DNA of 64,000 nt, taken from assembly GCA_964510635.1 (NCBI GenBank), contig CAZEBS010000004.1, positions 68,165-132,164 on the forward strand, given 5' to 3'. The notes under the pieces are model-generated. The model worked only from the letters and a program-made list of their open reading frames with translations, was not told where the DNA came from and made no database searches. The DNA is from an uncultured Candidatus Bathyarchaeia archaeon (GTDB lineage Archaea; Thermoproteota; Bathyarchaeia; Bathyarchaeales; Bathyarchaeaceae). Positions 187 to 12,133 of the stretch are shown here, piece after piece; positions within the stretch are counted from its first letter, which is position 1; each line of letters opens with the position of its first letter. A program made the translations under genes and the position numbers.

Positions 187-250
187 GTTTTTTGGGTTGG
201 AACAGCGTAACTTATAAGAAAACTTTGCCCATTGGTCAGGTGTGGAAATC

Positions 251-1327
251 ATGCCAAAGAAGCTTACTTACTCGGAAGCGGGCGTAGACAGGAAAACAAG
301 AGCAAAATCCAAACAAGCCCTCTCAATGCTAAAAGGAACCTACACCTTGGGCAGATACGGAAAAGTTGTTCAGCTGCCCTACGGCAACATCTTCCTTGCT
401 GGCGACCGCTACCTAGACCTCGTCATCGAAGGCGTCGGAACCAAAGTTCTCCTTGCCCAGCTGGCAGACAAATATGACACCATCGGAGTGGACGGCGTTG
501 CCATGGCAGTCAACGACGTTATACGGTCAGGAGCCACTCCCTTAGCTTTAGTTGACAATTTTCATGCCCACGTTTCTGACCCAGACTTGGTCAAAGAGTG
601 GCTGAAGGGCATAGTCAAGGGCGCAGAAGAATCAGATTGCCCTGTTCCGGGAGGCGAAATCGGAGATGTGGCTTCCATCATAAAGGGGTTAACCGAGGGA
701 AAAGGCTTTGATTTGATTGTTGCCAGCGTAGGCGAAGTGCAGGAAAGGGACATTATTTCTGGACGAAACATCAAGGCGGGTGACGCTGTTGTGGGTTTAC
801 GAAGTTCAGGGGTTCACAGCAACGGAATCTCGCTTGTACGGAAGGTTCTTTTCAAGGAGTGGGGCGGTAAATATGAGCCCTTTGATGTTCCAGACGGATT
901 CGACAGAGAAATCGTGTACGAGGCTTTGGAGCCAACAAAAATTTATGTCAAATCATTCTTGAACGCCGCCAAAGCGGTCACAATAAAGGGTGCCATTCAC
1001 GTGACCGGAGACGCATACATCAAATTCGACAGATTCATGAAGTACTCACCGGGCATCGGCTTCGAGTTCGCCAACTTCAAGCCGCAGCCAATCTTCAGTC
1101 TTATACAGCAGACAGGACCTGAGGTTGGAGGCACAATAACGGATGAGGAGATGCTGAAAACCTTCAACATGGGCTGGGGCTTCGCTGTTGTGGTGGACAA
1201 AACCGATGTAGACGAAGCAATTGATGTCATCGAGAAATGTGGCGTTGAAACTGAGGAAATCGGAAAAGTGACAAATACAGGAAAGATTGTTGCAGACTAC
1301 AAGAGCAAAAAGCTTGAACTGAAGTAG
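251..1327 (+). CDS. purM: Phosphoribosylformylglycinamidine cyclo-ligase (AIR synthetase)
   Basis: TYSEAGVD, EGVGTK, AMAVND, GGE, SSGVHSNG, HVTG and TFNMG motifs. ORF opens at GTG 242; ATG 251 follows AGGTG. Confidence 0.95.
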   Translation: MPKKLTYSEAGVDRKTRAKSKQALSMLKGTYTLGRYGKVVQLPYGNIFLAGDRYLDLVIEGVGTKVLLAQLADKYDTIGVDGVAMAVNDVIRSGATPLALVDNFHAHVSDPDLVKEWLKGIVKGAEESDCPVPGGEIGDVASIIKGLTEGKGFDLIVASVGEVQERDIISGRNIKAGDAVVGLRSSGVHSNGISLVRKVLFKEWGGKYEPFDVPDGFDREIVYEALEPTKIYVKSFLNAAKAVTIKGAIHVTGDAYIKFDRFMKYSPGIGFEFANFKPQPIFSLIQQTGPEVGGTITDEEMLKTFNMGWGFAVVVDKTDVDEAIDVIEKCGVETEEIGKVTNTGKIVADYKSKKLELK

Positions 1328-1400: not shown

Positions 1401-1649
1401 ATGTATAGCGCAAGAATCGAAGTCAGCCTCAAGCCGGGGCACTCAGACCCGGAAGGAGAAATGACCTGTCAATCCTTGAAGGAACTCAAGTTTTCCGCCA
1501 ATAAAGTCAATGTAAGCAAGGTCTACACTGTAGTTTTTGAGGCAAAATCTATGCAAGAAGCGGAGGAGGCAGTGGAAGAGATGTGTAGAAGGCTCCTCGC
1601 TAACCCAACCAAAGACAACTACAGCTACACAATAGAGGAAGCAAAATGA
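1401..1649 (+). CDS. purS: FGAM synthase subunit PurS
   Basis: LKPGHSDPEG and LLANP motifs; 82 aa; overlaps the purL start. Confidence 0.95.
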   Translation: MYSARIEVSLKPGHSDPEGEMTCQSLKELKFSANKVNVSKVYTVVFEAKSMQEAEEAVEEMCRRLLANPTKDNYSYTIEEAK

Positions 1650-4018
1650 GCCGCTACGTCAAAAAAGACGTGCCCTTCGAGCTTGTAGAAATAGACCTTA
1701 AAGACGCTGATGATGAGGAACTCGTCCAAATCAGCACAAAACTAGGAATCGGACTAAACCTAACCGAAATGCGCCTTGTCAAAAATTATTTCTCCAAAAG
1801 AAACCGTAACCCAACAGACGTGGAACTGCAAACCATCGGACAGACATGGTCAGAACACTGCTACCACAAAACCTTCAAAGGCAACATAACAACCCCAGAA
1901 GACACAATCAGCAGCCTCTTCAAAACCTACATCGCCAAAGCAACCAAAGAACTGAACCCCGACTGGTGCATCTCCGTCTTCGAAGACAACGCAGGCATCA
2001 TCGAATTCGACAAAAACTATGCCATCGCAGCAAAGGTTGAAACCCACAATCATCCCTCAGCCATTGAGCCTTTTGGGGGAGCAGCTACAGGAACAGGCGG
2101 AGTTATACGGGATATACTGGCTGTTTGGGCAGACCCTATAGCATGCACAGACGTTCTTTGCTTTGGTCCCCTAGATTACGATTACGACAAGTTGCCTCCT
2201 GGAACCAAGCACCCAAAATACGTTTACAGGGGCGTAGTCTCCGGAATAGGTGCCTACGGAAACAACATGGGAATCCCCACAGTCAACGGAGCCATCCATT
2301 TTGACGAAAGCTACGTCGGCAACGTGGTAGTCTACTGCGGATGCATAGGCATTCTTCCAAAAGACAAGTTCGTGAAGGACACCAGAGCAGGAGACATAGC
2401 ACTGCTTGTGGGCGGAGAAACAGGAAGAGACGGAATCCACGGCGTCACCTTCGCCTCAGCAGAACTAACCAAAGAATCCGAAGAAGTTTCCAGACCCGCA
2501 GTCCAGATAGCAAACCCCATAGAAGAAGAGCGAGTCAAGCGGGCAATAGTGAAGCTGCGGGACGAGGGCTTAGGCTCAGCCATAACTGACATAGGCGGCG
2601 GAGGAATATCTTGCGGAACTGGAGAAATGGCTGAACGGTCAAACCTTGGAATTCACGTTTACCTAGAAAAGATTCCATTAAAGTATCAGGGGTTGGCACC
2701 ATGGGAAATCTACGTTTCAGAATCACAGGAACGGATGCTCCTGTCAGTTCCAGAAAAAAACCTGGAGAAAGCCATAGAAATTTTTGAGGCCGAAGACGTT
2801 AAGGCAACTCCCATAGGCAAATTCACAACCGACGGAATCCTAAAAGTAACATACAATGAACAGACAGTTGCAGAGCTGGACCTTGACTTCGTTTTTGATC
2901 CACCAAAATTTGTTGGCGCCACAGACTGGCAGCCCCCTAAACTAGAAGAGCCAACATTTCCAGAACCAAAAAACCTAACTAATGAATTGTTTGGGTTGCT
3001 TTCGTTGCCGAACATCGCCAGTAAAGAGGCGGTGATAAGAAGCTACGACCATGAAGTGAAAGGAGCCACGGCACTGAAGCCTCTGCAAAGCAAGTATGGT
3101 GGACCCAACGACGCTGCTGTCCTCAAGCCCCTGTCCGATTCATGGAAGGGCGTAGTCATCTCTTGTGGAATGAATGTCAACTATGGAAAGGTTGACCCAT
3201 ACTGGATGGCAGCCTCAGGAATAGACGAGGCAATAAGAAACAATGTTGCTGTTGGCGGAAGAAGAATTGCCCTCCTCGATAACTTCACTTGGGGAAACCC
3301 CCAGAAACCTGACCGATTAGGCTCTTTGGTGAGCGCATGCAAGGCGTGCTACGATTTCGCTAAGGGCTTTCAGACGCCCTTTATTTCAGGAAAAGACAGC
3401 CTCTACAACGAATCACCCATAGGACCAGTCACACCCACACTCCTAATCACAGCAATCGGAATCACCCCAGACATACGAAAAACAGTCTCCATGGAACTGA
3501 AGCAACCCGGAAACATCGTCTACATGGTTGGCAGAACCTACCGTGAACTCGGAGGCAGCCACTACTACCAAACCAAAGGCACTCTAGGCAACAGCGTCCC
3601 CAAAGTAAGAATCGAAGAGGCAAAACAGACAATGGACCTGATTACAGAAGCCATTGACAGGGGCTACTTGCGGGCATGCCACGACCTTTCAGAGGGTGGT
3701 TTGGCTGTTGCGGCCGCGGAGATGGCTTTCAGTAGCGGATACGGAATAGACCTGAACCTAAGCAAGGTTCCCAGAGCAGATGATGTGTCCAGAAACGATT
3801 TTGTTCTTTTCTCGGAGTCAAACAGCCGATTCCTTGTTGAGGTAACAGAAAAGCGCAGAACAGACTTCGAAGCCCTGATGAAGGATGCTGTCTATGCTGA
3901 GGTCGGCAAAGTCAAAAAAGACGCTGTCCTGTCTGTGGCAGGCTTGGACGGCAAAGAGGCAATCCTTGCAGACTTGAAAGAGTTGAGGAGACGCTGGAAA
4001 AGCACACTAGGAGAGTGA
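1646..4018 (+). CDS. purL: FGAM synthase subunit PurL
   Basis: WSEHCYHK, KVETHNHPSAIEPFGGAATG, GRDGIHG, SESQERM and SGKDSLYN motifs. Confidence 0.97.
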   Translation: MSRYVKKDVPFELVEIDLKDADDEELVQISTKLGIGLNLTEMRLVKNYFSKRNRNPTDVELQTIGQTWSEHCYHKTFKGNITTPEDTISSLFKTYIAKATKELNPDWCISVFEDNAGIIEFDKNYAIAAKVETHNHPSAIEPFGGAATGTGGVIRDILAVWADPIACTDVLCFGPLDYDYDKLPPGTKHPKYVYRGVVSGIGAYGNNMGIPTVNGAIHFDESYVGNVVVYCGCIGILPKDKFVKDTRAGDIALLVGGETGRDGIHGVTFASAELTKESEEVSRPAVQIANPIEEERVKRAIVKLRDEGLGSAITDIGGGGISCGTGEMAERSNLGIHVYLEKIPLKYQGLAPWEIYVSESQERMLLSVPEKNLEKAIEIFEAEDVKATPIGKFTTDGILKVTYNEQTVAELDLDFVFDPPKFVGATDWQPPKLEEPTFPEPKNLTNELFGLLSLPNIASKEAVIRSYDHEVKGATALKPLQSKYGGPNDAAVLKPLSDSWKGVVISCGMNVNYGKVDPYWMAASGIDEAIRNNVAVGGRRIALLDNFTWGNPQKPDRLGSLVSACKACYDFAKGFQTPFISGKDSLYNESPIGPVTPTLLITAIGITPDIRKTVSMELKQPGNIVYMVGRTYRELGGSHYYQTKGTLGNSVPKVRIEEAKQTMDLITEAIDRGYLRACHDLSEGGLAVAAAEMAFSSGYGIDLNLSKVPRADDVSRNDFVLFSESNSRFLVEVTEKRRTDFEALMKDAVYAEVGKVKKDAVLSVAGLDGKEAILADLKELRRRWKSTLGE

Positions 4019-4022
4019 AAAA

Positions 4023-4841
4023 ATGAAGGCTGAAGAAATTCGTGTCTGCGTCATGAGGGTCGGCGGAACAAACTGCGACGCCGAAACAAAACGAGCCTTC
4101 GATGAACTGGGCGCAAAGGCAGAGGTGCTTCATTTCAACGAGGCAGTAAAGAAACGCAATCTTCAGGATTATAATGCTCTTGTGTTTCCGGGCGGATTCT
4201 CGTACGGCGACTACGTACGGGCAGGAGCCATCTGGGCAACCGGAACAATGACGAAGTTTCGGAAAGACCTGAAACTGTTTGTTGAGGAAGAGAGACCAAT
4301 ATTGGGAATCTGCAACGGCTTTCAGGTTCTAGTCGAAGCAGGGCTACTACCTGCCTTTGAGGGAATCAGCGAGTATCCTGAGGCAACGTTGGCAACCAAC
4401 ATTCCCATAGGATACAACTGCAGATGGGTCTACCTGAAACATGAAAACTCTGGAAACTGCATCTTCACCAAAAACATTCCAAAAGACAAAGTATTGCACA
4501 TACCTGTTGCCCATGGTGAGGGACGGTTCCAGTTCGCAAAAGAAAACGAAAACAGATACCTGCAAAAACTGATGGACAACGACCAGCTTGTCTTCAGATA
4601 CTGCACCAAAGACGGTGCACCCGCCGACGGAGAGTATCCAGTTAACCCTAACGGAGCTTTCTATGACATAGCAGGCATCTGCAATCCCGCAGGAACAGTC
4701 TTTGGCTTGATGCCCCATCCAGAAAGAGCATTCTATGGCTGGCAACTTCCTGACTGGACAAAAACAGAAACTGCGCCAGCCTATGGAGACGGAAAACAGG
4801 TCTTCGAGTCCATGATAGAATACTTGAAGAAACGATTCTAG
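4023..4841 (+). CDS. purQ: FGAM synthase glutaminase subunit PurQ
   Basis: GTNCD, PGGFSYGD, GICNGFQ, HGEG and MPHPER motifs. Confidence 0.97.
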   Translation: MKAEEIRVCVMRVGGTNCDAETKRAFDELGAKAEVLHFNEAVKKRNLQDYNALVFPGGFSYGDYVRAGAIWATGTMTKFRKDLKLFVEEERPILGICNGFQVLVEAGLLPAFEGISEYPEATLATNIPIGYNCRWVYLKHENSGNCIFTKNIPKDKVLHIPVAHGEGRFQFAKENENRYLQKLMDNDQLVFRYCTKDGAPADGEYPVNPNGAFYDIAGICNPAGTVFGLMPHPERAFYGWQLPDWTKTETAPAYGDGKQVFESMIEYLKKRF

Positions 4842-5740
4842 AGGTTTTTCAAGTCAGATAATTCAGGCAGTCCTGTTCTGGCGCCCACCATTGATATGCA
4901 GCGGGAAGCAACAAAGTTTCCCAGCCTTCCACACTCATACAGGTCTTTTCTTTTGATTAGTCCATAGAGAAAACCTGCACAGAAGGCGTCACCAGCCCCA
5001 GTTGTGTCAACAGCCTCCACCATGTAGGGCTCAATCAGGTGGCTCTCTTTTCCGTCAGTAACGTAGCAACCCTGTCCGCCAAGCTTAACAGCAATCACAT
5101 CAACCCCCAACTCGATGAATGCCCGAGCGCCTTCCTTGTAGTCCTGTCCTGTAAGCAACTTCAATTCTATCGCATTAGGGAACAAGACAGAACATTTCTT
5201 GATTATTGGCTTCAATACCGCCAAGCCTTTTCTTGCGTAGATGGCTCCAGGATCAAAACTCACCCTGACGTTTTTGAGCAGGTTTAGGAGCTGTTTTTGG
5301 GCTTTGAATGAACGTTCTCCAACAAAAGAGGATAGATGCAGAAACTCTGCGCCAGAGACGTAATCTAGGTTAATGTCTTTGAAGTCTATGTGGTCGTTGA
5401 CTCCTGGGTCAACATACAGTGCCCTGTCACCTTTTGTGTCGATGAAGCCCATGACTGAGCCGCTTCTGCCCTTCTCCGAGACAGTTATTCCGTTAACGTC
5501 TACTCCCTCTTCTCTGAACTCGTTTAGGAGAAATGTTCCTTCACGGTCTGAGGCAACCTTTCCGATGAAGCCTGTTTTGAGTTCCAGCCTAGCTAAACCT
5601 ACAACTGTGTTGGCTGCAGAACCTCCACCATACTCCTTGAAGTCCAGCACGGCACCTTCTTCCTCTTTCTTAGCAATCATGTTCACCTTGAAGAGCTTGT
5701 CCAGATTAAGGGCGCCAAAGCCTACAGCATCAAAAGTCAT
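4838..5740 (-). CDS. PfkB/ribokinase-family carbohydrate or nucleoside kinase (EhaT-like)
   Basis: GGSAAN and DTTGAGDAF PfkB signatures; ATGA overlap with the upstream ftr-like gene. Confidence 0.9.
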
Positions 5741-6642
5741 CCTAGCAGCTCCTTTAGGTAGATTTTGTGTTTTCCAAGTTTTCCGCCATAATTACCAGCA
5801 GAAACCCTGACAACCCCATCAACTTGTGTTGCGCTTTGGATGCCTGCTTTCATTGCCTTCTTGACGGCTTCCATGGAGGTTCCGTTAATCACAATCTCCG
5901 GGATATACTTCACGCCTTTTGGAACCTTCGATTCCTGTCCCAGCCTAGTTTTTAATGTGGAACAGTAGGGGTGATTGGTTGTGGGTCCAATCAACGGAAA
6001 CTTGGTTTCAGGCTTGGAACCCGCAGAGCAGATGTCAAAGGGTGCTATTACGCCCTTAACTTGACTTATAGCATCCAACGCCTTGTTTCCTGCATCCATG
6101 ACTGCTCGTTTGGTTTTGCACATGAACCAGAAGTTGGCTCCCATAACGCCCCGTGCGTAGCCCAGCTCCTTCTCTATCAGAAAGTTAGAAACCATCAAGG
6201 GAACAACAATCATGCTTCGTCTATAGCGGTTTTCTGTCCATTCATAGCCGTCTCCACAGTGACCAACCCGCTCCATCATACCCATCTTTCCCTCAGCTTC
6301 AGGTAGGGCGTCAAAGACGGCAGTGAAGGGCTTCACTAGAATGTCCTGCCTTATTCTGAAGGAGAGTTCTGCTTCAAACTTTTTCACGGACTCTGTTAGG
6401 GGCTTGTTTGGGTCGATTCCTCCCCAGAACTGCAGAACTGCGCCGTTTCGTCCATCTGGCGTTTCCTGTTTGGTTAGGATGTTTTCGATGCCTCCTTCGA
6501 TTCTGCCGATAACAATTGATGGTGTAGCTGTGGCGTCTTCAGCGGCTTTCCGTAAAACTGTAGGATGGTCTGCTGTGACTACTACTCTGGAGACTATTCC
6601 GTCGAAAGCTTCTGCGTAGGTGTCTTCGATTTCAGGCTTCAA
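5737..6642 (-). CDS. ftr: Formylmethanofuran:tetrahydromethanopterin formyltransferase-like protein (Ftr/EhaS-like paralog)
   Basis: [40 protein letters not shown] and [10 protein letters not shown] motifs of the Ftr family. Confidence 0.88.
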
Positions 6643-6662
6643 GGAAATCCCCCTTCATATGT

Positions 6663-7769
6663 TTAGCCTAACTGTCCTATAGCCTCTCCCCTCACAGTCT
6701 TCCTGAAAACGCTGCTCTCCCTCTTCAAACGCTCAACACTATCATCGGTTACCTGTTCCACCTGAGGAAAACCATCAGAAAACACCATAGACATCCGTTT
6801 ACACAATTCTGGAGAGACACTATTTTTCTTCAGTCCCGAAAGACTCCACTCCTTAACCAGTCTAAGGGCTCCATCTTTGCCCTGTCTGCTGAAGGCTTCC
6901 GCGAGAACAGACGTTACAGTGGTGTTTCCTGAAAGCACCGCAATATCTGCCTCCCGCACAGAATAATCATTGCCGTTAAAGGAGACTGTTAATCCGCCGT
7001 TCTCTCTTACTAGCTTCAGGGCTGGCGCGTCGGTTATGCTGTCGCCCACATACATTACCCTGTCAAGGCTGCAATTCATCCGCTCCACAACGTCTTGCAC
7101 TGCCCGAGCTTTTTCTGTGCCGCCAACAGGATTAACCTCTGTTAGCATCCTTCCAGATTCCATGTTTGACAACTCTTTCCAGAATATTGTGTCCAGCCGC
7201 TCTATGGTTTCTTGGTCTCTCTGGGAAAAGTCATTGACGGAAAAGGCGTTTTTTGGGATTTCAATCATAGGCAACGCTGCTATCTCTTTTTTGAGTTCTT
7301 GTAGCCTTTTCATCTCTTCGGCGGGTATGTCGTATTTGTCGAGGTTCAGGCGGGTGCAGTAGCAATTCTCGAAAGGAAAACCAGTCAGCTCACATAAAGA
7401 AGAGATGTACTGCTCGTAGCTGGTGCTGACAATGAAGGAGGGCATAAGCTGTCTGACGAAGGTGAGGGTGTTTTTGGCTCCTGGAACCAGTAACACGTTT
7501 TTGGCAGAAAAATTTTTGATTTGCTTGTTTGTGGCTCCGTAAGCCTTAAGGAAAGGAAGAATCAGCCGTAGCGTGTCCCCAGCCTTGTAGCCATGCTTCT
7601 GGACAACATCTGCAAGAACATCATCATATTTACTTATTAGAGCAAAGAAGCTGCCTCCATCTGGGACAAGATTGGCTGCCAACTCGAAGGCGTTGTCATT
7701 CTTTGAGATAGGTCCCTCACAGTCAGAAACGAACAGCCTCAGACTTTTCTGGGACGCTTCTTCTGACAT
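6663..7769 (-). CDS. HAD-superfamily hydrolase (COG4030/EhaR-like)
   Basis: HAD motif I variant DCEGP, motif II IVSTSY, motif III Lys (GGTEK), motif IV GDSITD. Its start shares base 7769 with the purD stop. Confidence 0.8.
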   Translation of the reverse strand: MSEEASQKSLRLFVSDCEGPISKNDNAFELAANLVPDGGSFFALISKYDDVLADVVQKHGYKAGDTLRLILPFLKAYGATNKQIKNFSAKNVLLVPGAKNTLTFVRQLMPSFIVSTSYEQYISSLCELTGFPFENCYCTRLNLDKYDIPAEEMKRLQELKKEIAALPMIEIPKNAFSVNDFSQRDQETIERLDTIFWKELSNMESGRMLTEVNPVGGTEKARAVQDVVERMNCSLDRVMYVGDSITDAPALKLVRENGGLTVSFNGNDYSVREADIAVLSGNTTVTSVLAEAFSRQGKDGALRLVKEWSLSGLKKNSVSPELCKRMSMVFSDGFPQVEQVTDDSVERLKRESSVFRKTVRGEAIGQLG

Positions 7770-9184
7770 CAGCGCCTCCTCAATTCATCCATATGTTCTA
7801 TGCTTTGTCTAATGTGTGGTTTCGCAGCAATGTCGCTTCGGTTCCACAACGCACCGCCACTAATCGCCACAATACCCTCCAGGGACTTTTCTCTTGCCTC
7901 CTGAATACTGTCACCCAAGCCCACAACGGCTACGGTGCGGGAGCCAAGGGCAAAGTTTTCGCCGTCCCTCAGCTCCATGGAACCAGGATAAACCCTTATG
8001 TTGCCGTCCTTTTTGGCTAGCTTCTGTGCTTCAGTCAAGTCTATGGCAGTGTCAACAGCTGTTTTGTCTACGCGGTCAGGATATACGGTTGCGTAGCCGC
8101 CATAGTTTGGTGGAACCTTGTATGTTACGACGGTTGCCTTGTTCAGGAAGTTGACTTTTCTCAGGTTTCCGTCCCTCATGTTGTAGCATACCTCAACGAA
8201 GTCGTCCTTCAGTGCAGGCAACAGAGTCATTATCTCTGGGTCGCCAGGTCGGCTGTTTACTTCTAGGATTTTTGGTCCTTTGTCGGTGTGGATGAAGGCG
8301 GCGTAGAATGGGGTTCCCCGTAGCTCAGGATTGCTTCCTTTTCCCTTCAACTCCACGAAAACCCTGTTAACTAACTCAACCTCTTTCTCCCTGTCTTTTG
8401 CGGTAATGAAAGGCAGAATATCCTTTGTGTCCTTGTATGCGCCCATTCCTCCAGTGTTTGGACCTTTATCCTCGTCAAAGGCTCGCTTGTAGTCTCTGCT
8501 TTCAGGCAACGGAATCAAACGTTTTCCGTCACAAAATGCCTGAAAACTGGATTCTTCGCCCTCAACTTTCTCTTCGATTATCACTGGACCATGCTCGTAG
8601 TTGGATAGGAAATGCTCGAAAACCTCCTCTGGCGAGTTGAAGTGGTCTCCCCACACTCCAACACCCTTTCCTGCAGTTGCCCTGTCAGGCTTCACCGCAA
8701 CCTCATTGTTAAGTTCCTTCAGCCAAGCGTACACACTCTTTTTGACTTGTGTGGTGCTGCTGTAGTCTTTGGGGTCAAAAACCTTGAATTCTGGATTAAC
8801 TTCTGGCGAAACTTTCTGAAACAGCTGCCGTTGAGCGATTTTGCTTGCTTCTATGGCATACTGTTTGGTTGGGCAAATCATCTGTATGCCTGTCTTTTTC
8901 TCGACCATATCCCGTACGCCTGCGATGATAGGTTTTTCTGGACCAACTATCCCAAAGTCTATCTGGTCACGGTATTTTTTGGCGAACTTGGTGATCTTCT
9001 CCAAGTTGAAGTCTGAGATAACTGTGTGTTTTTCTGCATGTTTCACGTTGAAGGGGTTACGCTGTTTGTCAACAACATAAAATTTTGGGGCATATTCTTC
9101 GCTGCGGACAAAGGCATCTATCATGGCGGCTGCTCTTGAGCCGTACGAAATTACTAGGATACCGACTTTTTCCATCAAGGTCAC
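7769..9184 (-). CDS. purD: Phosphoribosylamine--glycine ligase (GAR synthetase)
   Basis: VGPEKP, EASK, AGKGV, DYKRAFDEDKGPNTGGMGAY and EVNSRPGDPE motifs. Confidence 0.93.
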   Translation of the reverse strand: MTLMEKVGILVISYGSRAAAMIDAFVRSEEYAPKFYVVDKQRNPFNVKHAEKHTVISDFNLEKITKFAKKYRDQIDFGIVGPEKPIIAGVRDMVEKKTGIQMICPTKQYAIEASKIAQRQLFQKVSPEVNPEFKVFDPKDYSSTTQVKKSVYAWLKELNNEVAVKPDRATAGKGVGVWGDHFNSPEEVFEHFLSNYEHGPVIIEEKVEGEESSFQAFCDGKRLIPLPESRDYKRAFDEDKGPNTGGMGAYKDTKDILPFITAKDREKEVELVNRVFVELKGKGSNPELRGTPFYAAFIHTDKGPKILEVNSRPGDPEIMTLLPALKDDFVEVCYNMRDGNLRKVNFLNKATVVTYKVPPNYGGYATVYPDRVDKTAVDTAIDLTEAQKLAKKDGNIRVYPGSMELRDGENFALGSRTVAVVGLGDSIQEAREKSLEGIVAISGGALWNRSDIAAKPHIRQSIEHMDELRRR

Positions 9185-9217
9185 CTACATACTGGATGCA
9201 AACTTGTCATAATTGAG

Positions 9218-10714
9218 CTAGTTGATGGCAGTCTCGTATATTCTCCCTTTTTCGGTGTATCCGTTCTCGAAACGTTCTTTCATTTCATCTGCCAATTTCT
9301 GAGCCAAGGGCGTAGGATACTTGCCTGTGATACAACCCAAACACAGGTCATCTTTGCTTAAGCCAGTGGCTTTGACTAGCCCATCCACTGACTGGTAATT
9401 CACCCCATCGGCGCCCACTATCTTCGCAATCTCGTCAGCGTCATACTGTGAACCTATCAGTTCCCTGTAGGTTGCCATGTCCACTCCATAGAAGCATGGA
9501 CCAATTATTCTGGGGAAGGTGATGAAAAGGTAGATGCTTTTGGCGCCCATTTCCCGCAGCTTGTTAACCACAACTTTGGTGGTGTCGCCTCTGACGATGC
9601 TGTCATCCACCACTGCCACATTTTTTCCAGCCAATTTATGGTCGACAATGTTGATTTTACGGTCTATTGTGTTGAATCGTTCATTACTGAGCAGAATAAA
9701 GGCTCTCTCTGCCACATACCTGTGCCTTCTAGAGGCTCTTTCCCACCTTATTCCCGTCAACTCATGGTAGCCGTAGGCTGCATCGTTGCCTGTTTCAGGC
9801 ATGGACATAATCATATCCACTTTACTGGTGGTTTCAGGGTATTCCCATGCAAAGTTTCTTCCGAACTCCTCTCGGACTTCGTAAACGTACCTGTTTCCCA
9901 GCCTAGAGTCTGGCCTGGCAAAGTATGCGAACTCGAAGGCGCATAACGCCCGTTTTTCGCTGAAAACCAGCTGTTTTCGTGTGAAGCCGTCCTTTGTGGC
10001 AGTTACAAGTTCTCCAGGATTTACCTCAAAATCGAATTCGAAGCCGTTGATGTCTAAGCCCACGGTTTCTGAGGAGACCACACACGTTTTTCGGTCTTTG
10101 CTGCATCCACAACATAGTGGCCTTATTCCGCAGGGGTCTCTGAAGGCAAACAGTTCTCCTTTTTCGTTCAGTCCAGCGACGGAGAATGCTCCTTCCATTT
10201 CTTTCATGCATCTTTTCACGGAGGAGGCAAGGTCGTCGTCCTTTTCTTTTCTCAGGAGTTTTCTGGAAATCAGTTCTGCGTCGTAGTTGAAACGAAAGTT
10301 CGGGTATTCTTCCCGTATTTCTTTGATTATATCTGGAGTGTTAACTATGTTGCCGTTGAAGGCTATGGCAATTTGTCTTTCTCCCCGTTTCTCAAGAATT
10401 GGTTGGGTGCTTTTTACAAGTGATTGGTAATCGGTTCCGCCAGAGGTAGAGTATCTGACGTGTCCCAATCCAACGGAGCCTGGCAACTCTGTTAGCCACT
10501 GCTGGATGTCACTTTGTTTTATTTTCGGAACCAAATCCAAGTCTTTGTTGCTGTGGAATGTTCCGTCAAAGGTTAGGAATCCGTGGGATTGGTGGCCGCG
10601 GTGATTCTGTGCTCGTAATCCCCAATAGACGTAGGGGAACACAGGTTGGTTCTCGAAGTTTTGTGCTCCGAAAACTCCGCATGCCTCTTTTAACTGTTCG
10701 ACCATATTTTCCAC
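9218..10714 (-). CDS. purF: Amidophosphoribosyltransferase
   Basis: Propeptide followed by CGVFG; HRG, HVRYST, FARPDS, VDDSIVRGDT; Fe-S Cys residues. Confidence 0.96.
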   Translation of the reverse strand: MENMVEQLKEACGVFGAQNFENQPVFPYVYWGLRAQNHRGHQSHGFLTFDGTFHSNKDLDLVPKIKQSDIQQWLTELPGSVGLGHVRYSTSGGTDYQSLVKSTQPILEKRGERQIAIAFNGNIVNTPDIIKEIREEYPNFRFNYDAELISRKLLRKEKDDDLASSVKRCMKEMEGAFSVAGLNEKGELFAFRDPCGIRPLCCGCSKDRKTCVVSSETVGLDINGFEFDFEVNPGELVTATKDGFTRKQLVFSEKRALCAFEFAYFARPDSRLGNRYVYEVREEFGRNFAWEYPETTSKVDMIMSMPETGNDAAYGYHELTGIRWERASRRHRYVAERAFILLSNERFNTIDRKINIVDHKLAGKNVAVVDDSIVRGDTTKVVVNKLREMGAKSIYLFITFPRIIGPCFYGVDMATYRELIGSQYDADEIAKIVGADGVNYQSVDGLVKATGLSKDDLCLGCITGKYPTPLAQKLADEMKERFENGYTEKGRIYETAIN

Positions 10715-10921
10715 TATTTACGTGTCCTATTTATCAATGTTTACTACAATTTTAACGCAAAACTGGCGTGGGCAAATTGTGTTGCTCTAGTCTCTGTTGG
10801 GGAATTGTTTGCAGTACACAGACTATCCTTTTAGCATACTATTGGGGTTATGGTTTTGTTGCCCGCATTACAGTAAGGTATATATGAATTGTAGTTGTTA
10901 GCCTTTCGTCAAGGTGTTTTT

Positions 10922-12133
10922 ATGAGGAACATACTTGTTAACGATTCGAAACGGACACCTCTTGAGAAACAGCCTATCGAAATTGTGGAACGCAAAGGTG
11001 TCGGTCATCCTGACTCGATGTGTGACGCTATAATGGATCAGGTTTCAGTGGAACTGAGCAAAGCTTACCTGAAAGAATTTGGAGCAATTTTACATCACAA
11101 CACCGACAAGTCTCTACTCGTTGCAGGAGATGTTGAATGCAAGTTTGGAGGGGGAGTAGTGAACAAACCCATGCTTCTTATTTTTGGGGACCGAGCAACC
11201 TTTGGAGCCAACGGAAAAGAAGTCCCTGTTGAAGATATTGCCATCAACACAGCCAAAAAATGGTTGAAAGAAAACATCAGATTTGTCGACCCCGAAAAAC
11301 ACATGGAATACCAAATCGCCATCAGACAAGGCTCACAAGGACTCACTGACATTTTCAAACGTGGAACCTGCATGTTTGGAGCTAACGACACTTCAGCAGC
11401 AGTAGGTTATGCACCCTTAACCCGCACAGAAAACATGGTTTTGACCACGGAACGCTACATTAACTCTAAGGAATTCAAGAAACGGTTCCCTATGAGTGGA
11501 GAAGATGTTAAAGTCATGGGCTACAAGAACGGCAATGTCCTGAACTTGACTATTTGTAACGCATTTGTTGACCATCTTGTTTCTGACATAAAAGATTACA
11601 TGCGAAGAAAAGATGAGATTATCACTGATGTTCAGGAATGGGTGAACGCGAAAGGTGCCTTTGATAAGGTTAACGTTTACATCAACACTTTGGATGTTGA
11701 CAACCGTGGAGTTGATGGTGTCTTTTTGACTGTGCTGGGAACCTGTGCTGATGGTGCAGATTCTGGTCAAGTCGGCCGTGGCAACAAAGTCAACGGAGTA
11801 ATCTCCCTTAACAGACCAATCGGAACTGAAGCTGCAGCAGGCAAAAACCCAGTCAGCCACGTAGGAAAAATCTACAATGCCCTATCTCACCAAATTGCCC
11901 GAAAAATCTGTGATGAAGTACCCGAAGTAGCAGAAACCATTGTTTGGCTCCTAAGCCAAATAGGCAAACCCATCGACCAGCCCGCAATCGCAGCAGCCCA
12001 AGTCGTCATGAACGAAGGCTCGGTTTACGACAAGAAAATCCAAGGCAGAGTCAACGAAGTAATCGATGCAGAACTCGCAAACATCGAAAACTTCTGTGAA
12101 AAACTCACCTACGGAAAAATCTCAGTCTGGTAA
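10922..12133 (+). CDS. mat: Archaeal-type S-adenosylmethionine synthetase
   Basis: [34 protein letters not shown] and [17 protein letters not shown] motifs. ATG 10922 follows AGGTG (ORF opens at 10895). Confidence 0.95.

Follow-up and report, generated by a model that had tools for sequence, protein, structure and literature searches.

We analysed 64,000 nucleotides (hereafter the window) of contig CAZEBS010000004.1 (forward strand, positions 68,165 to 132,164) from assembly GCA_964510635.1 of an uncultured Candidatus Bathyarchaeia archaeon, where two convergent operons encode enzymes of de novo purine synthesis. One of them carries, directly after purD, genes for a protein of the haloacid dehalogenase (HAD) superfamily, a paralogue of the formyltransferase Ftr (here Ftr2) and a kinase of the PfkB family, the same trio of families as EhaR, EhaS and EhaT, the last eha genes of Methanothermobacter. 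An earlier reading of the sequence alone (the sequence-only reading) had proposed that this trio takes the place of PurN and PurT in the third step of the pathway, the formylation of glycinamide ribonucleotide (GAR) to formylglycinamide ribonucleotide (FGAR). The gene order it had given, a minus-strand purF-purD-HAD-Ftr2-PfkB facing a plus-strand purM-purS-purL-purQ, was confirmed by a list of open reading frames (ORFs) and by Pfam and NCBIfam scans (Table 1), and the convergence and the junctions it had described were borne out as well: base 7769 belongs both to the stop codon (TGA) of purD and to the start codon (ATG) of the HAD gene, Ftr2 and PfkB overlap by ATGA, and inspection of the sequence agreed with the spacer before Ftr2. 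The 3' ends of purQ and PfkB overlap by 4 bases (4838-4841), and the position of purF upstream of purD is kept in related Bathyarchaeia loci. An Rfam scan of the window returned one tRNA as its only match, and none within the operon. The names carried by close homologues agree with an assignment of the organism to Bathyarchaeia.

Table 1. Genes and features of the two convergent purine operons and of the adjoining region (positions are those of the window; aa, amino acids; nt, nucleotides; SAM, S-adenosylmethionine)
Feature	Position	Strand	Evidence
HAD-superfamily gene, 368 aa, EhaR-like	6663-7769	-	weak HAD-IB/IIB matches only
Spacer, 20 nt, with GGGGGA ribosome-binding-like run before the TTG start of Ftr2	6643-6662	-	sequence reading
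Ftr2, 301 aa, TTG start, EhaS-like; proposed GAR(-riboside) formyltransferase	5737-6642	-	FTR + FTR_C
PfkB-family ribokinase-like kinase, 300 aa, EhaT-like	4838-5740	-	PF00294
purF, amidophosphoribosyltransferase (purine step 1), first in operon	9218-10714	-	TIGR01134 325 bits (cut-off 350); GATase_6/7
purD, GAR synthetase (step 2), divergent type	7769-9184	-	GARS_N/A/C; TIGR00877 263.7 bits (cut-off 288)
purM (step 5), at the start of the convergent operon	242-1327	+	TIGR00878 258.5 bits, above cut-off
purS	1401-1649	+	PF02700, TIGR00302
purL (step 4, consumes FGAR)	1646-4018	+	TIGR01736 673.6 bits
purQ	4023-4841	+	NF002252 313.6 bits
Archaeal-type SAM synthetase, divergent, beyond purF	10895-12133		ORF/family scans

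The sequence-only reading had noted that purN and purT are missing from the cluster, and neither was found in the assembly as a whole (2.07 Mb in 36 contigs, 92.81% complete, so that absences are probable, not certain): PurN gave no match, the best match of PurT reached 37.3 bits against a cut-off of 502, and no formate-tetrahydrofolate ligase was found. Elsewhere in the genome there are two tandem PurP genes (C8:11027-12666) and a stand-alone inosine monophosphate (IMP) cyclohydrolase corresponding to the N-terminal part of PurH only (C4:58133-58699, on the contig of the window and some 10 kb upstream of it). Because purF, purD, purL, purS, purQ, purM, PurP and IMP cyclohydrolase are present and PurN and PurT were not found, GAR formylation is the single step without a candidate; the formylation of 5-aminoimidazole-4-carboxamide ribonucleotide (AICAR) is covered by the PurP genes. 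An action of the trio at the AICAR step, which had been offered as an alternative, is thus unlikely, and we rejected it as the principal explanation on account of the two PurP genes and the IMP cyclohydrolase here and of a separate AICAR formyltransferase (AICARFT) in a folate-type variant of the operon described below. A PurP paralogue as the missing enzyme is likewise unsupported, since among 23 genomes (picked by hand, not a random sample) tandem PurP pairs were alike in those with Ftr2, PurT-like and PurN genes; such pairs are common in Bathyarchaeia whichever GAR enzyme is present. A separate, canonical Ftr (37% identity to Ftr2 of the window) is encoded on contig C3, so Ftr2 is not the sole Ftr copy of the genome, a point the sequence-only reading had marked for checking.

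Ftr2 carries both Ftr lobes at full length (PF01913, 147.1 bits; PF02741, 194.4 bits), exceeds the cut-off of the subfamily model NF002554 (344 bits; cut-off 297), stays below that of the equivalog model TIGR03119 (237.6 bits; cut-off 292.6), and is matched by solved Ftr chains with E values of 6e-55 to 2.5e-32. We gathered 640 Ftr relatives from 1.84 billion representative sequences and built a tree from 54 full-length representatives (270-345 aa) and both Ftr copies of this genome. It separated a canonical clade of 39 sequences, among them the genome's own Ftr (SH-aLRT 99), from a side of 17 sequences with Ftr2 of the window, and a second tree (FastTree, 47 sequences: subsampled representatives together with sequences from a second archaeal phylum and from metagenome contigs) repeated this split with a support of 99. 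With 99% support in both trees, the window copy therefore groups outside the canonical clade, apart from its own genome's Ftr and 38 canonical representatives, which answers the question about its placement that the sequence-only reading had put.

When 25 sequences of the Ftr2 side were compared with 29 canonical ones, 18 positions were conserved in both sets, including the catalytic glutamate (E249 of the window protein), which aligns with the Glu of solved Ftr chains and is kept in at least 85% of both clades; we take it to be Glu245 in the Ftr of Methanopyrus kandleri. About 21 alignment positions differ systematically between the two clades, with Cys129 in Ftr2 for Phe, Pro220 for Ala and Pro248 for Tyr, Met or Phe, the last directly before the catalytic Glu, and Arg98, Trp73 and Trp172 are conserved residues specific to Ftr2. 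In the bacterial homologue FhcD the catalytic residue is Glu252, described as stabilising the tetrahedral intermediate (PMC6926001). From these residues, Ftr2 looks like a formyltransferase that is likely active and has an altered substrate site. It has the two-lobe fold and the catalytic Glu in common with Ftr (PDB 1FTR/2FHJ, 1M5H, 1M5S) and FhcD (6S6Y); it differs from them in forming a separate clade, below the TIGR03119 cut-off, and in being encoded in purine operons instead of beside genes of one-carbon (C1) pathways.

The HAD protein gave an AlphaFold model (AF2) with a pLDDT (predicted local distance difference test) of 93.3. Its nearest solved structure is AF1437 of Archaeoglobus fulgidus (PDB 1Y8A; phmmer E 1.5e-31; Foldseek E 7e-19, TM (template modelling) score 0.93 on the target, 26% identity in the structural alignment), a structural-genomics protein of unknown function which has the same D-x-E-G-P motif and comes from a lineage reported to be without PurN and PurT (PMC3261824). 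Motif I of the window protein reads D16-x-E18-G-P, with D-x-E invariant in 16/16 aligned sequences down to 30% identity, and motifs II (STSYE), III (K220) and IV (GDSITD) are normal, on a Rossmann-like core; further invariant residues make up an acidic/aromatic cluster (S-x-Y-D-D, Y61, E119, F-N-G-N-x-Y). The next folds after AF1437 are phosphoserine phosphatases, ThrH, MtnX and cytosolic 5'-nucleotidase III. The HAD-IB phosphatases among them (phosphoserine phosphatase/ThrH/MtnX; Foldseek E 3e-07 to 2e-03) agree with the window protein in motifs II-IV, but the latter has Glu in motif I, a large cap and an extra C-terminal helical region, and identity is 10-16%. The C-terminus (window 6663-6700), F-R-K-x-V-R-G-E-x-x-G-x-L-G, is almost invariant down to 30% identity, and its final G-x-L-G is invariant; such a conserved tail suggests that it may enter an active site or dock a partner.

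The kinase matches PF00294 over its full length (179.4 bits) and stays below every equivalog cut-off, including that of ribokinase (TIGR02152, 156.8 bits; cut-off 299.65); ribokinase, followed by ribose-1-phosphate kinases, are its top NCBIfam matches. The motifs GAxNxD, GG (GGSAAN), the NxxE-type Glu192 and DTTGAGD are conserved, and the catalytic motifs are invariant in 16 sequences. Domain and motifs are those of the ribokinase and nucleoside kinases of the PfkB family; the window kinase differs from these in being fixed in purine operons. By tblastn it is the only PfkB-family gene of the genome.

The arrangement of the trio is conserved. Among 80 Bathyarchaeia loci (the best of 574 confirmed matches by similarity to Ftr2), nearly all show purF-purD-HAD-Ftr2-PfkB opposing purQ-purL-purS-purM. 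Of the loci with enough flanking DNA to be evaluated, 65 of 72 have HAD directly upstream of Ftr2, 68 of 73 have PfkB directly behind it, and 60 of 67 have purD on the upstream side. The five PfkB misses include a coordinate-overlap artefact (L012) and a 3.3-kb insert (L034); HAD is missing upstream in L022, L031, L036, L040 and L085, Ftr2 stands alone in L064 and L069, and for three of these seven exceptional loci a HAD homologue occurs elsewhere in the genome. The HAD-Ftr2-PfkB arrangement is not a product of chance. An apparent HAD-Ftr2 fusion in genome G081 (L179, G081:C1 ~9340-9440) was rejected, the 604-aa frame being a false one through a run of N in HAD.

To place these loci in a wider context, we searched one evenly drawn sample of 301 Bathyarchaeia genomes for Ftr2, PurN, PurT, purD and HAD. 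Ftr2-type matches (E <= 1e-82 and at least 50% identity; the Ftr1 class is defined by E >= 1e-64 and at most 45%) occurred in 112 genomes, PurN-family matches in 123 (44 of them above the curated cut-off), PurT-like matches (E <= 1e-40) in 15, none above the strict cut-off, purD in 247 and HAD in 120. HAD was present in 112/112 Ftr2-positive genomes and in 0/44 genomes with canonical PurN, and just one of the 112 had a PurN-family match. Of 109 genomes with both purD and Ftr2, 106 were without PurN-family and PurT-like genes; of the other three, G149 has a PurN-like match below threshold on a small contig, and G001 and G274 have ATP-grasp matches of about 173 bits that we take to be PurK-like proteins. 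Conversely, 127 of the 138 genomes with purD and without Ftr2 had one or the other (114 PurN-family, 13 PurT-like); among the 11 with neither, five are less than 80% complete, and in G062, G169 and G239 contigs end inside or just after the HAD-Ftr2 genes. Ftr2 is thus nearly mutually exclusive with PurN and PurT across the sample, as the sequence-only reading had expected. Families of mixed composition are more telling than the overall counts: the mosaic family f12 comprises two genomes with Ftr2 and HAD, eight with PurT-like genes and one with PurN. The best explanation of these patterns is that the trio works together as a single conserved module within the operon for de novo purine synthesis.

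PurD of Bathyarchaeia falls into two score classes, about 255-275 bits in HAD/Ftr2 operons versus 340-513 bits in genomes with PurN or PurT, and the class changes along with Ftr2 within family f12; the exception is G031, with a high-scoring PurD (25% identity to that of the window) in an Ftr2 operon. We also observed a PurN-like paralogue of 271-279 aa, with the motif V-H-P-A-D-L-S, an intact S-G-x-G-T-N loop and an extra C-terminal part, which lies directly after purD in G071 (L181, G071:C8 7973-8554) and between purD and canonical purN in G176 (L185, G176:C16 6130-6678), and which is the only PurN-family match in most of family f19 (63/71 genomes). It may be a further variant of GAR transformylase.

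Eight genomes of the sample have HAD without Ftr2, and three of these are the assembly breaks mentioned above (G062, G169, G239). In three others (G034 of family f9, G028 and G140 of family f22) the operon reads purF-purD-X-HAD-PfkB, without Ftr2, where X, at the operon slot of Ftr2, is a divergent Formyl_trans_N protein of 281-330 aa; the remaining two (G010 and G002, family f9) have HAD and PfkB without Ftr2, no purD in the stretch fetched, and a PurN-like match that is not adjacent. FolD follows PfkB in G034 and G028, where the downstream sequence was examined, and an AICARFT gene lies near in G034. PurP was not found in G034, G010 and G028, the three genomes searched for it; these genomes are therefore folate-based at both formylation steps, yet HAD and PfkB are kept. 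The closest solved relative of X is the GAR transformylase of Escherichia coli (E 8e-12), and in an alignment of ten sequences X keeps the catalytic N-x-H and Asp residues. The N-terminal loop S-G-x-G-[ST]-N, however, reads S-G-R-D-x-x in all three HAD-linked X sequences, whereas it is intact in 7/7 sequences not linked to HAD (four canonical PurN, three PurN-like paralogues). We take the residues Gly11-Ser12-Asn13 of this loop in E. coli PurN to hold the 5'-phosphate of GAR; if this is right, the HAD-linked transferase would be built for an acceptor without 5'-phosphate. The displacement shows that the slot of Ftr2 apparently needs a formyltransferase of the GAR-transformylase kind, and that HAD and PfkB would be tied to the acceptor and not to the C1 carrier.

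The sequence-only reading had asked whether the linkage to purine genes recurs in other lineages, and it does so in a second phylum, that of G301, a metagenome-assembled genome (MAG) titled Candidatus Thorarchaeota (locus L049). Of 151 genomes sampled from this phylum, 24 have HAD. In type a (G363, G325, G346) the genes are arranged on one strand as purF-purD-HAD-Ftr2-PfkB-purL-purQ-purM, with 27-44% identity to the window proteins; in type b, comprising five small genomes (G358, G366, G306, G318, G349), the order is purQ-purL-purF-(purD)-HAD-PfkB-purE-purB-purM, and an Ftr2-type paralogue (50-56% identity) lies at an unlinked place and clusters in the second tree with Ftr2 genes of metagenome contigs that are not linked to pur genes. 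Neither PurN nor PurT was found in the eight genomes of types a and b (0/8 each). In type c (three genomes inspected: G313, G440, G409) the order is purD-HEAT-repeat protein-HAD, with no kinase adjacent; in large genomes of this phylum the HEAT-repeat protein between purD and HAD has 161-166 aa (L213 8126-8611, L214 10480-10965, L215 7741-8241). A HAD about as distant as that of type c (E 1e-26 to 1e-34) occurs in 13 of the sampled genomes of this phylum.

A metagenome scan for other Ftr2 subclades returned mostly Bathyarchaeia-like and second-phylum-like genes, and an Ftr2 profile search returned almost only Bathyarchaeia. In six metagenome loci (L099, L111, L117, L145, L152, L115) the Ftr2-type gene adjoins genes for ATP-dependent phosphofructokinase, a class-II aldolase-like protein, fructose bisphosphatase and isocitrate/isopropylmalate dehydrogenase, and in L117 and L120 an EhaR-like HAD (29-30% identity) lies a few kb from it. 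The sole locus of a third Ftr2-like subclade (P0254, 38% identity; L089, 183-3380) has the gene between phosphoribosyl pyrophosphate (PRPP) synthetase and a small HAD-IA hydrolase, different from the EhaR-like HAD, which belongs to the TIGR02253 family and has weak nucleotidase similarity and motif I D-x-T; this single case is a hint that Ftr2-type genes keep company with phosphatases and with genes for ribose-phosphate metabolism. In a Desulfobacterales MAG, a contig of 1.2 kb (L072) holds a Bathyarchaeia-like Ftr2 (70% identity) and a HAD fragment, and its placement there is probably a binning error.

The sequence-only reading had referred to a trio named EhaR/EhaS/EhaT and to the absence of a recognisable GAR transformylase from several archaea, and both points hold. 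HAD homologues at 74-88% identity are named 'energy-converting hydrogenase A subunit R' by JGI (Joint Genome Institute), and Kaster et al. (2011), in their account of the eha genes of Methanothermobacter, give EhaS and EhaT as annotated Ftr and ribokinase, co-transcribed with the eha genes (PMC3087415). In that organism the trio shares a transcript with the genes of a membrane hydrogenase and is regarded as part of that enzyme, whereas that of the window stands in a purine operon. In the protein Atlas one cluster is named EhaR (a lead only); the commonest phyla of the EhaR-like HAD clusters are Thermoplasmatota, Methanobacteriota and, in three clusters, bacterial Thermodesulfobacteriota. As to the missing enzyme, the manual census of archaeal purine synthesis by Brown et al. 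(2011) lists seven species in which no GAR formyltransferase could be found, namely two Archaeoglobi, Methanosphaera, two Methanobrevibacter, Methanothermobacter and M. kandleri, and states that purine C8 derives from C2 of acetate in Methanosphaera (PMC3261824). Chadwick et al. (2022) describe a divergent Ftr2 clade in the anaerobic methanotrophic archaea (ANME) ANME-1 and ANME-2a/b, in Archaeoglobales, M. kandleri and Methanothermobacter, and in another section report ANME-1, Archaeoglobales and Methanobacteriales to be without PurN and PurT (PMC9012536); in these passages the two statements are not connected. In a search of full-text literature, with subscription journals and supplements lying outside it so that prior publication is possible, no paper came up that connects GAR formylation with Ftr2/EhaS, the EhaR-type HAD or the kinase. 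The genes themselves, and the missing enzyme as an open problem, were already known; what appears from this search to be new is the link between the misnamed genes and the missing GAR formyltransferase.

The core of the sequence-only reading, the trio in place of PurN and PurT, has thus come through the checks on absence from the genome, on a separate Ftr, on distribution and on linkage. What the data show is which genes are present and how they are conserved, their complementary distribution, the displacement in situ and the retention of catalytic residues; which substrates and which formyl donor are used, and in what order the three enzymes act, is inferred. It is quite probable that the module provides GAR formylation (GAR to FGAR), and nearly an even matter whether it does so via a dephospho intermediate or a phosphate hand-over. 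Overall, we favour an EhaRST-orthologous module of the purine operon which would provide step 3 in archaea without PurN and PurT, an explanation that we regard as having an even chance of being right. Ftr2 would be the formyltransferase that moves the formyl group onto the glycinamide amine; the role is assigned to it on the strength of the family it belongs to, of the catalytic residue it has kept and of the PurN relative that replaces it elsewhere. The donor might be N5-formyl-H4MPT (H4MPT, tetrahydromethanopterin), the acceptor replacing methanofuran, or formyl-methanofuran; the former, with the glycinamide amine in place of the methanofuran amine, would be the closer analogy to PurN, and the origin of C8 from acetate C2 in Methanosphaera would fit a route via serine and H4MPT-bound C1 units.

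HAD and PfkB would act on the 5'-phosphate end of the acceptor and not on the C1 carrier. Most likely, HAD would remove or take over the phosphate of the GAR made by the translationally coupled PurD, Ftr2 would formylate the uncharged riboside, and PfkB would return the phosphate with ATP to yield FGAR for PurL, at a net cost of one ATP per formylation; as a variant, the D-x-E HAD might hand over the phosphate directly, with the kinase as back-up. Such a relay would account for the strict co-occurrence, the retention after displacement, the lost loop, the coupling of purD with HAD and the existence of a dedicated kinase. The fact that HAD and PfkB are kept where Ftr2 is displaced by a loop-less PurN-like enzyme, a transferase of the kind the relay would predict, supports it indirectly, and dephosphorylation, formylation and rephosphorylation would be the best-fitting mechanism. 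The proposed reaction is like that of PurN, the folate-dependent GAR transformylase, in that the glycinamide amine would be formylated from a pterin-bound formyl; PurN, however, has an unrelated fold, uses another C1 carrier and works alone on the nucleotide, whereas the transferase of the module always occurs with phosphatase-like and kinase proteins. In archaea without folate PurT serves instead of PurN, and the relay would match its net ATP cost; PurT is, however, an ATP-grasp enzyme using free formate, and no homologue above cut-off was found in this genome. Rather more tentatively, and with somewhat less than an even chance, EhaR/S/T might not be hydrogenase subunits but a carrier-independent three-enzyme bypass to FGAR via the free riboside, in which the formyl group would come from methanogen-type C1 carriers with Ftr2 as the transferase or, in some lineages, from formyl-folate with a loop-less PurN relative.

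Several observations weigh against this explanation. The case for a third GAR-formylation system is one of comparative genomics, and the genomes compared are related, so that the statistics overstate independence and the Fisher value for the purD-positive genomes overstates the evidence; the complementarity mostly follows family boundaries, and only a few families are mixed (f12, f21, f22). Canonical PurN occurs in nine of the 24 HAD-positive genomes of the second phylum, all nine with a distant HAD (E 1e-26 to 1e-32); as 9 of the 13 genomes with a distant HAD are thus PurN-positive, a HAD beside purD does not always stand in for PurN. In the second tree, Ftr2 of type a groups as sister to Ftr2 of the Bathyarchaeia genome G031 (99% support), and the operon has therefore probably moved between the phyla, so that its recurrence is not fully independent. 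On metagenome contigs, many Ftr2-type genes (53-58% identity) have genes of glycolysis and other functions, not pur genes, as neighbours. Mch and FwdA are present, but no canonical Ftr could be found, in five Ftr2-positive genomes (G139, G288, G175, G298, G031); they are 91-97% complete and include both sampled Ftr2-positive genomes of genus g22, and in them Ftr2 may still run the ordinary Ftr reaction, or Ftr1 may have been overlooked. Motif I of HAD, where Glu stands at the position usually taken by the second Asp, is atypical of a plain phosphatase, and Arg98, conserved in Ftr2, could bind phosphate, which would favour direct formylation of GAR. The link to EhaRST comes from names and papers. 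To our knowledge, a detour of hydrolysis and rephosphorylation is without precedent in de novo purine synthesis. Arg98, the unusual motif I, the PurN-positive type-c genomes and this want of precedent urge caution.

Among the other explanations we considered, the one that survives best, though we think it unlikely, is that Ftr2 formylates GAR directly, as an H4MPT- or methanofuran-dependent analogue of PurN. HAD and PfkB would then stand outside the main path and assist it, perhaps by bringing dephosphorylated purine intermediates back into use, by providing ribose 5-phosphate or PRPP, or by proofreading. This would be the simplest chemistry, with Arg98 holding the 5'-phosphate; a role in ribose-phosphate supply is hinted at by the Ftr2-like gene beside PRPP synthetase in L089 and is in keeping with ribokinase and ribose-1-phosphate kinases as the best matches of PfkB, and the coexistence of the distant HAD with PurN in the second phylum would be easier to understand. 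However, direct formylation leaves unexplained why HAD and PfkB accompany Ftr2 in 112/112 genomes and occur in none of the 44 with canonical PurN, why they are retained when Ftr2 is displaced, why the displacing enzyme has lost the G-[ST]-N loop that is kept in all seven other sequences, and why purD and HAD are constantly adjacent with overlapping stop and start codons.

It is improbable that Ftr2 is a second ordinary Ftr which feeds C1 units or formate to an unrecognised GAR-formylating enzyme such as a PurP paralogue or a divergent PurD. The catalytic Glu and 17 further positions in common with canonical Ftr, the NF002554 match above cut-off, the five genomes with Mch and FwdA that show only the Ftr2 type, the presence of FolD, a C1-supply gene, in the folate-type operon too, and the two PurP genes of this genome could all be read in that way. 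Yet canonical Ftr is present here and in most Ftr2 genomes (typically two matches), about 21 positions are systematically changed including the residue before the catalytic Glu, PurP copy number is independent of the absence of PurN and PurT, and the swapped operons replace Ftr2, with FolD alongside, by a PurN-family transferase that is nearest to GAR transformylase.

Methanopterin biosynthesis has kinase and phosphatase steps on ribosyl intermediates, and the trio might accordingly be thought to serve another reaction, on a ribosylated intermediate of methanopterin, methanofuran or another cofactor, or in AICAR formylation, and to be only loosely tied to purine genes, as the many Ftr2-type genes outside pur operons could indicate. 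This is very improbable: PurP here and AICARFT in the folate-type variant already account for the formylation of AICAR, the module lies directly after purD in two phyla, and its distribution mirrors that of PurN and PurT and not cofactor use, folate-type lineages without PurP keeping HAD and PfkB. That the trio belongs to an energy-converting hydrogenase, whether as subunits or as factors in its assembly, as the names EhaR/S/T and the co-transcription of homologues with ehaA-R described for Methanothermobacter (PMC3087415) would have it, is hardly credible, because the Bathyarchaeia and second-phylum loci examined stand in purine operons and not beside hydrogenase genes, and all three proteins belong to soluble enzyme families with intact catalytic motifs.

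Since the census of 2011, it has been an open gap that Archaeoglobi, Methanobacteriales and Methanopyrus, as listed there, make purines without a recognisable GAR formyltransferase (PMC3261824), and ANME-1 was added to them in a section of the 2022 study (PMC9012536). The trio is the best candidate yet for this missing step, with concrete genes that behave as an alternative to PurN and PurT across hundreds of genomes, and the natural folate-type version makes the proposal testable in E. coli. If it is true, the annotation of EhaR/S/T as hydrogenase subunits and of Ftr2 as a redundant Ftr would have to be corrected, and the purine pathway would be closed in metabolic models of abundant sediment archaea and methanogens. 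The Ftr fold would gain a new activity, and a textbook pathway possibly a new logic, in which the phosphate is taken off, the riboside formylated and the phosphate put back on; this would be the first de novo purine pathway to run through a non-phosphorylated intermediate. Purine synthesis would then be tied to the archaeal Wood-Ljungdahl C1 pool in Bathyarchaeia, Asgard-type archaea, Archaeoglobi, Methanobacteriales, Methanopyrus and ANME-1.

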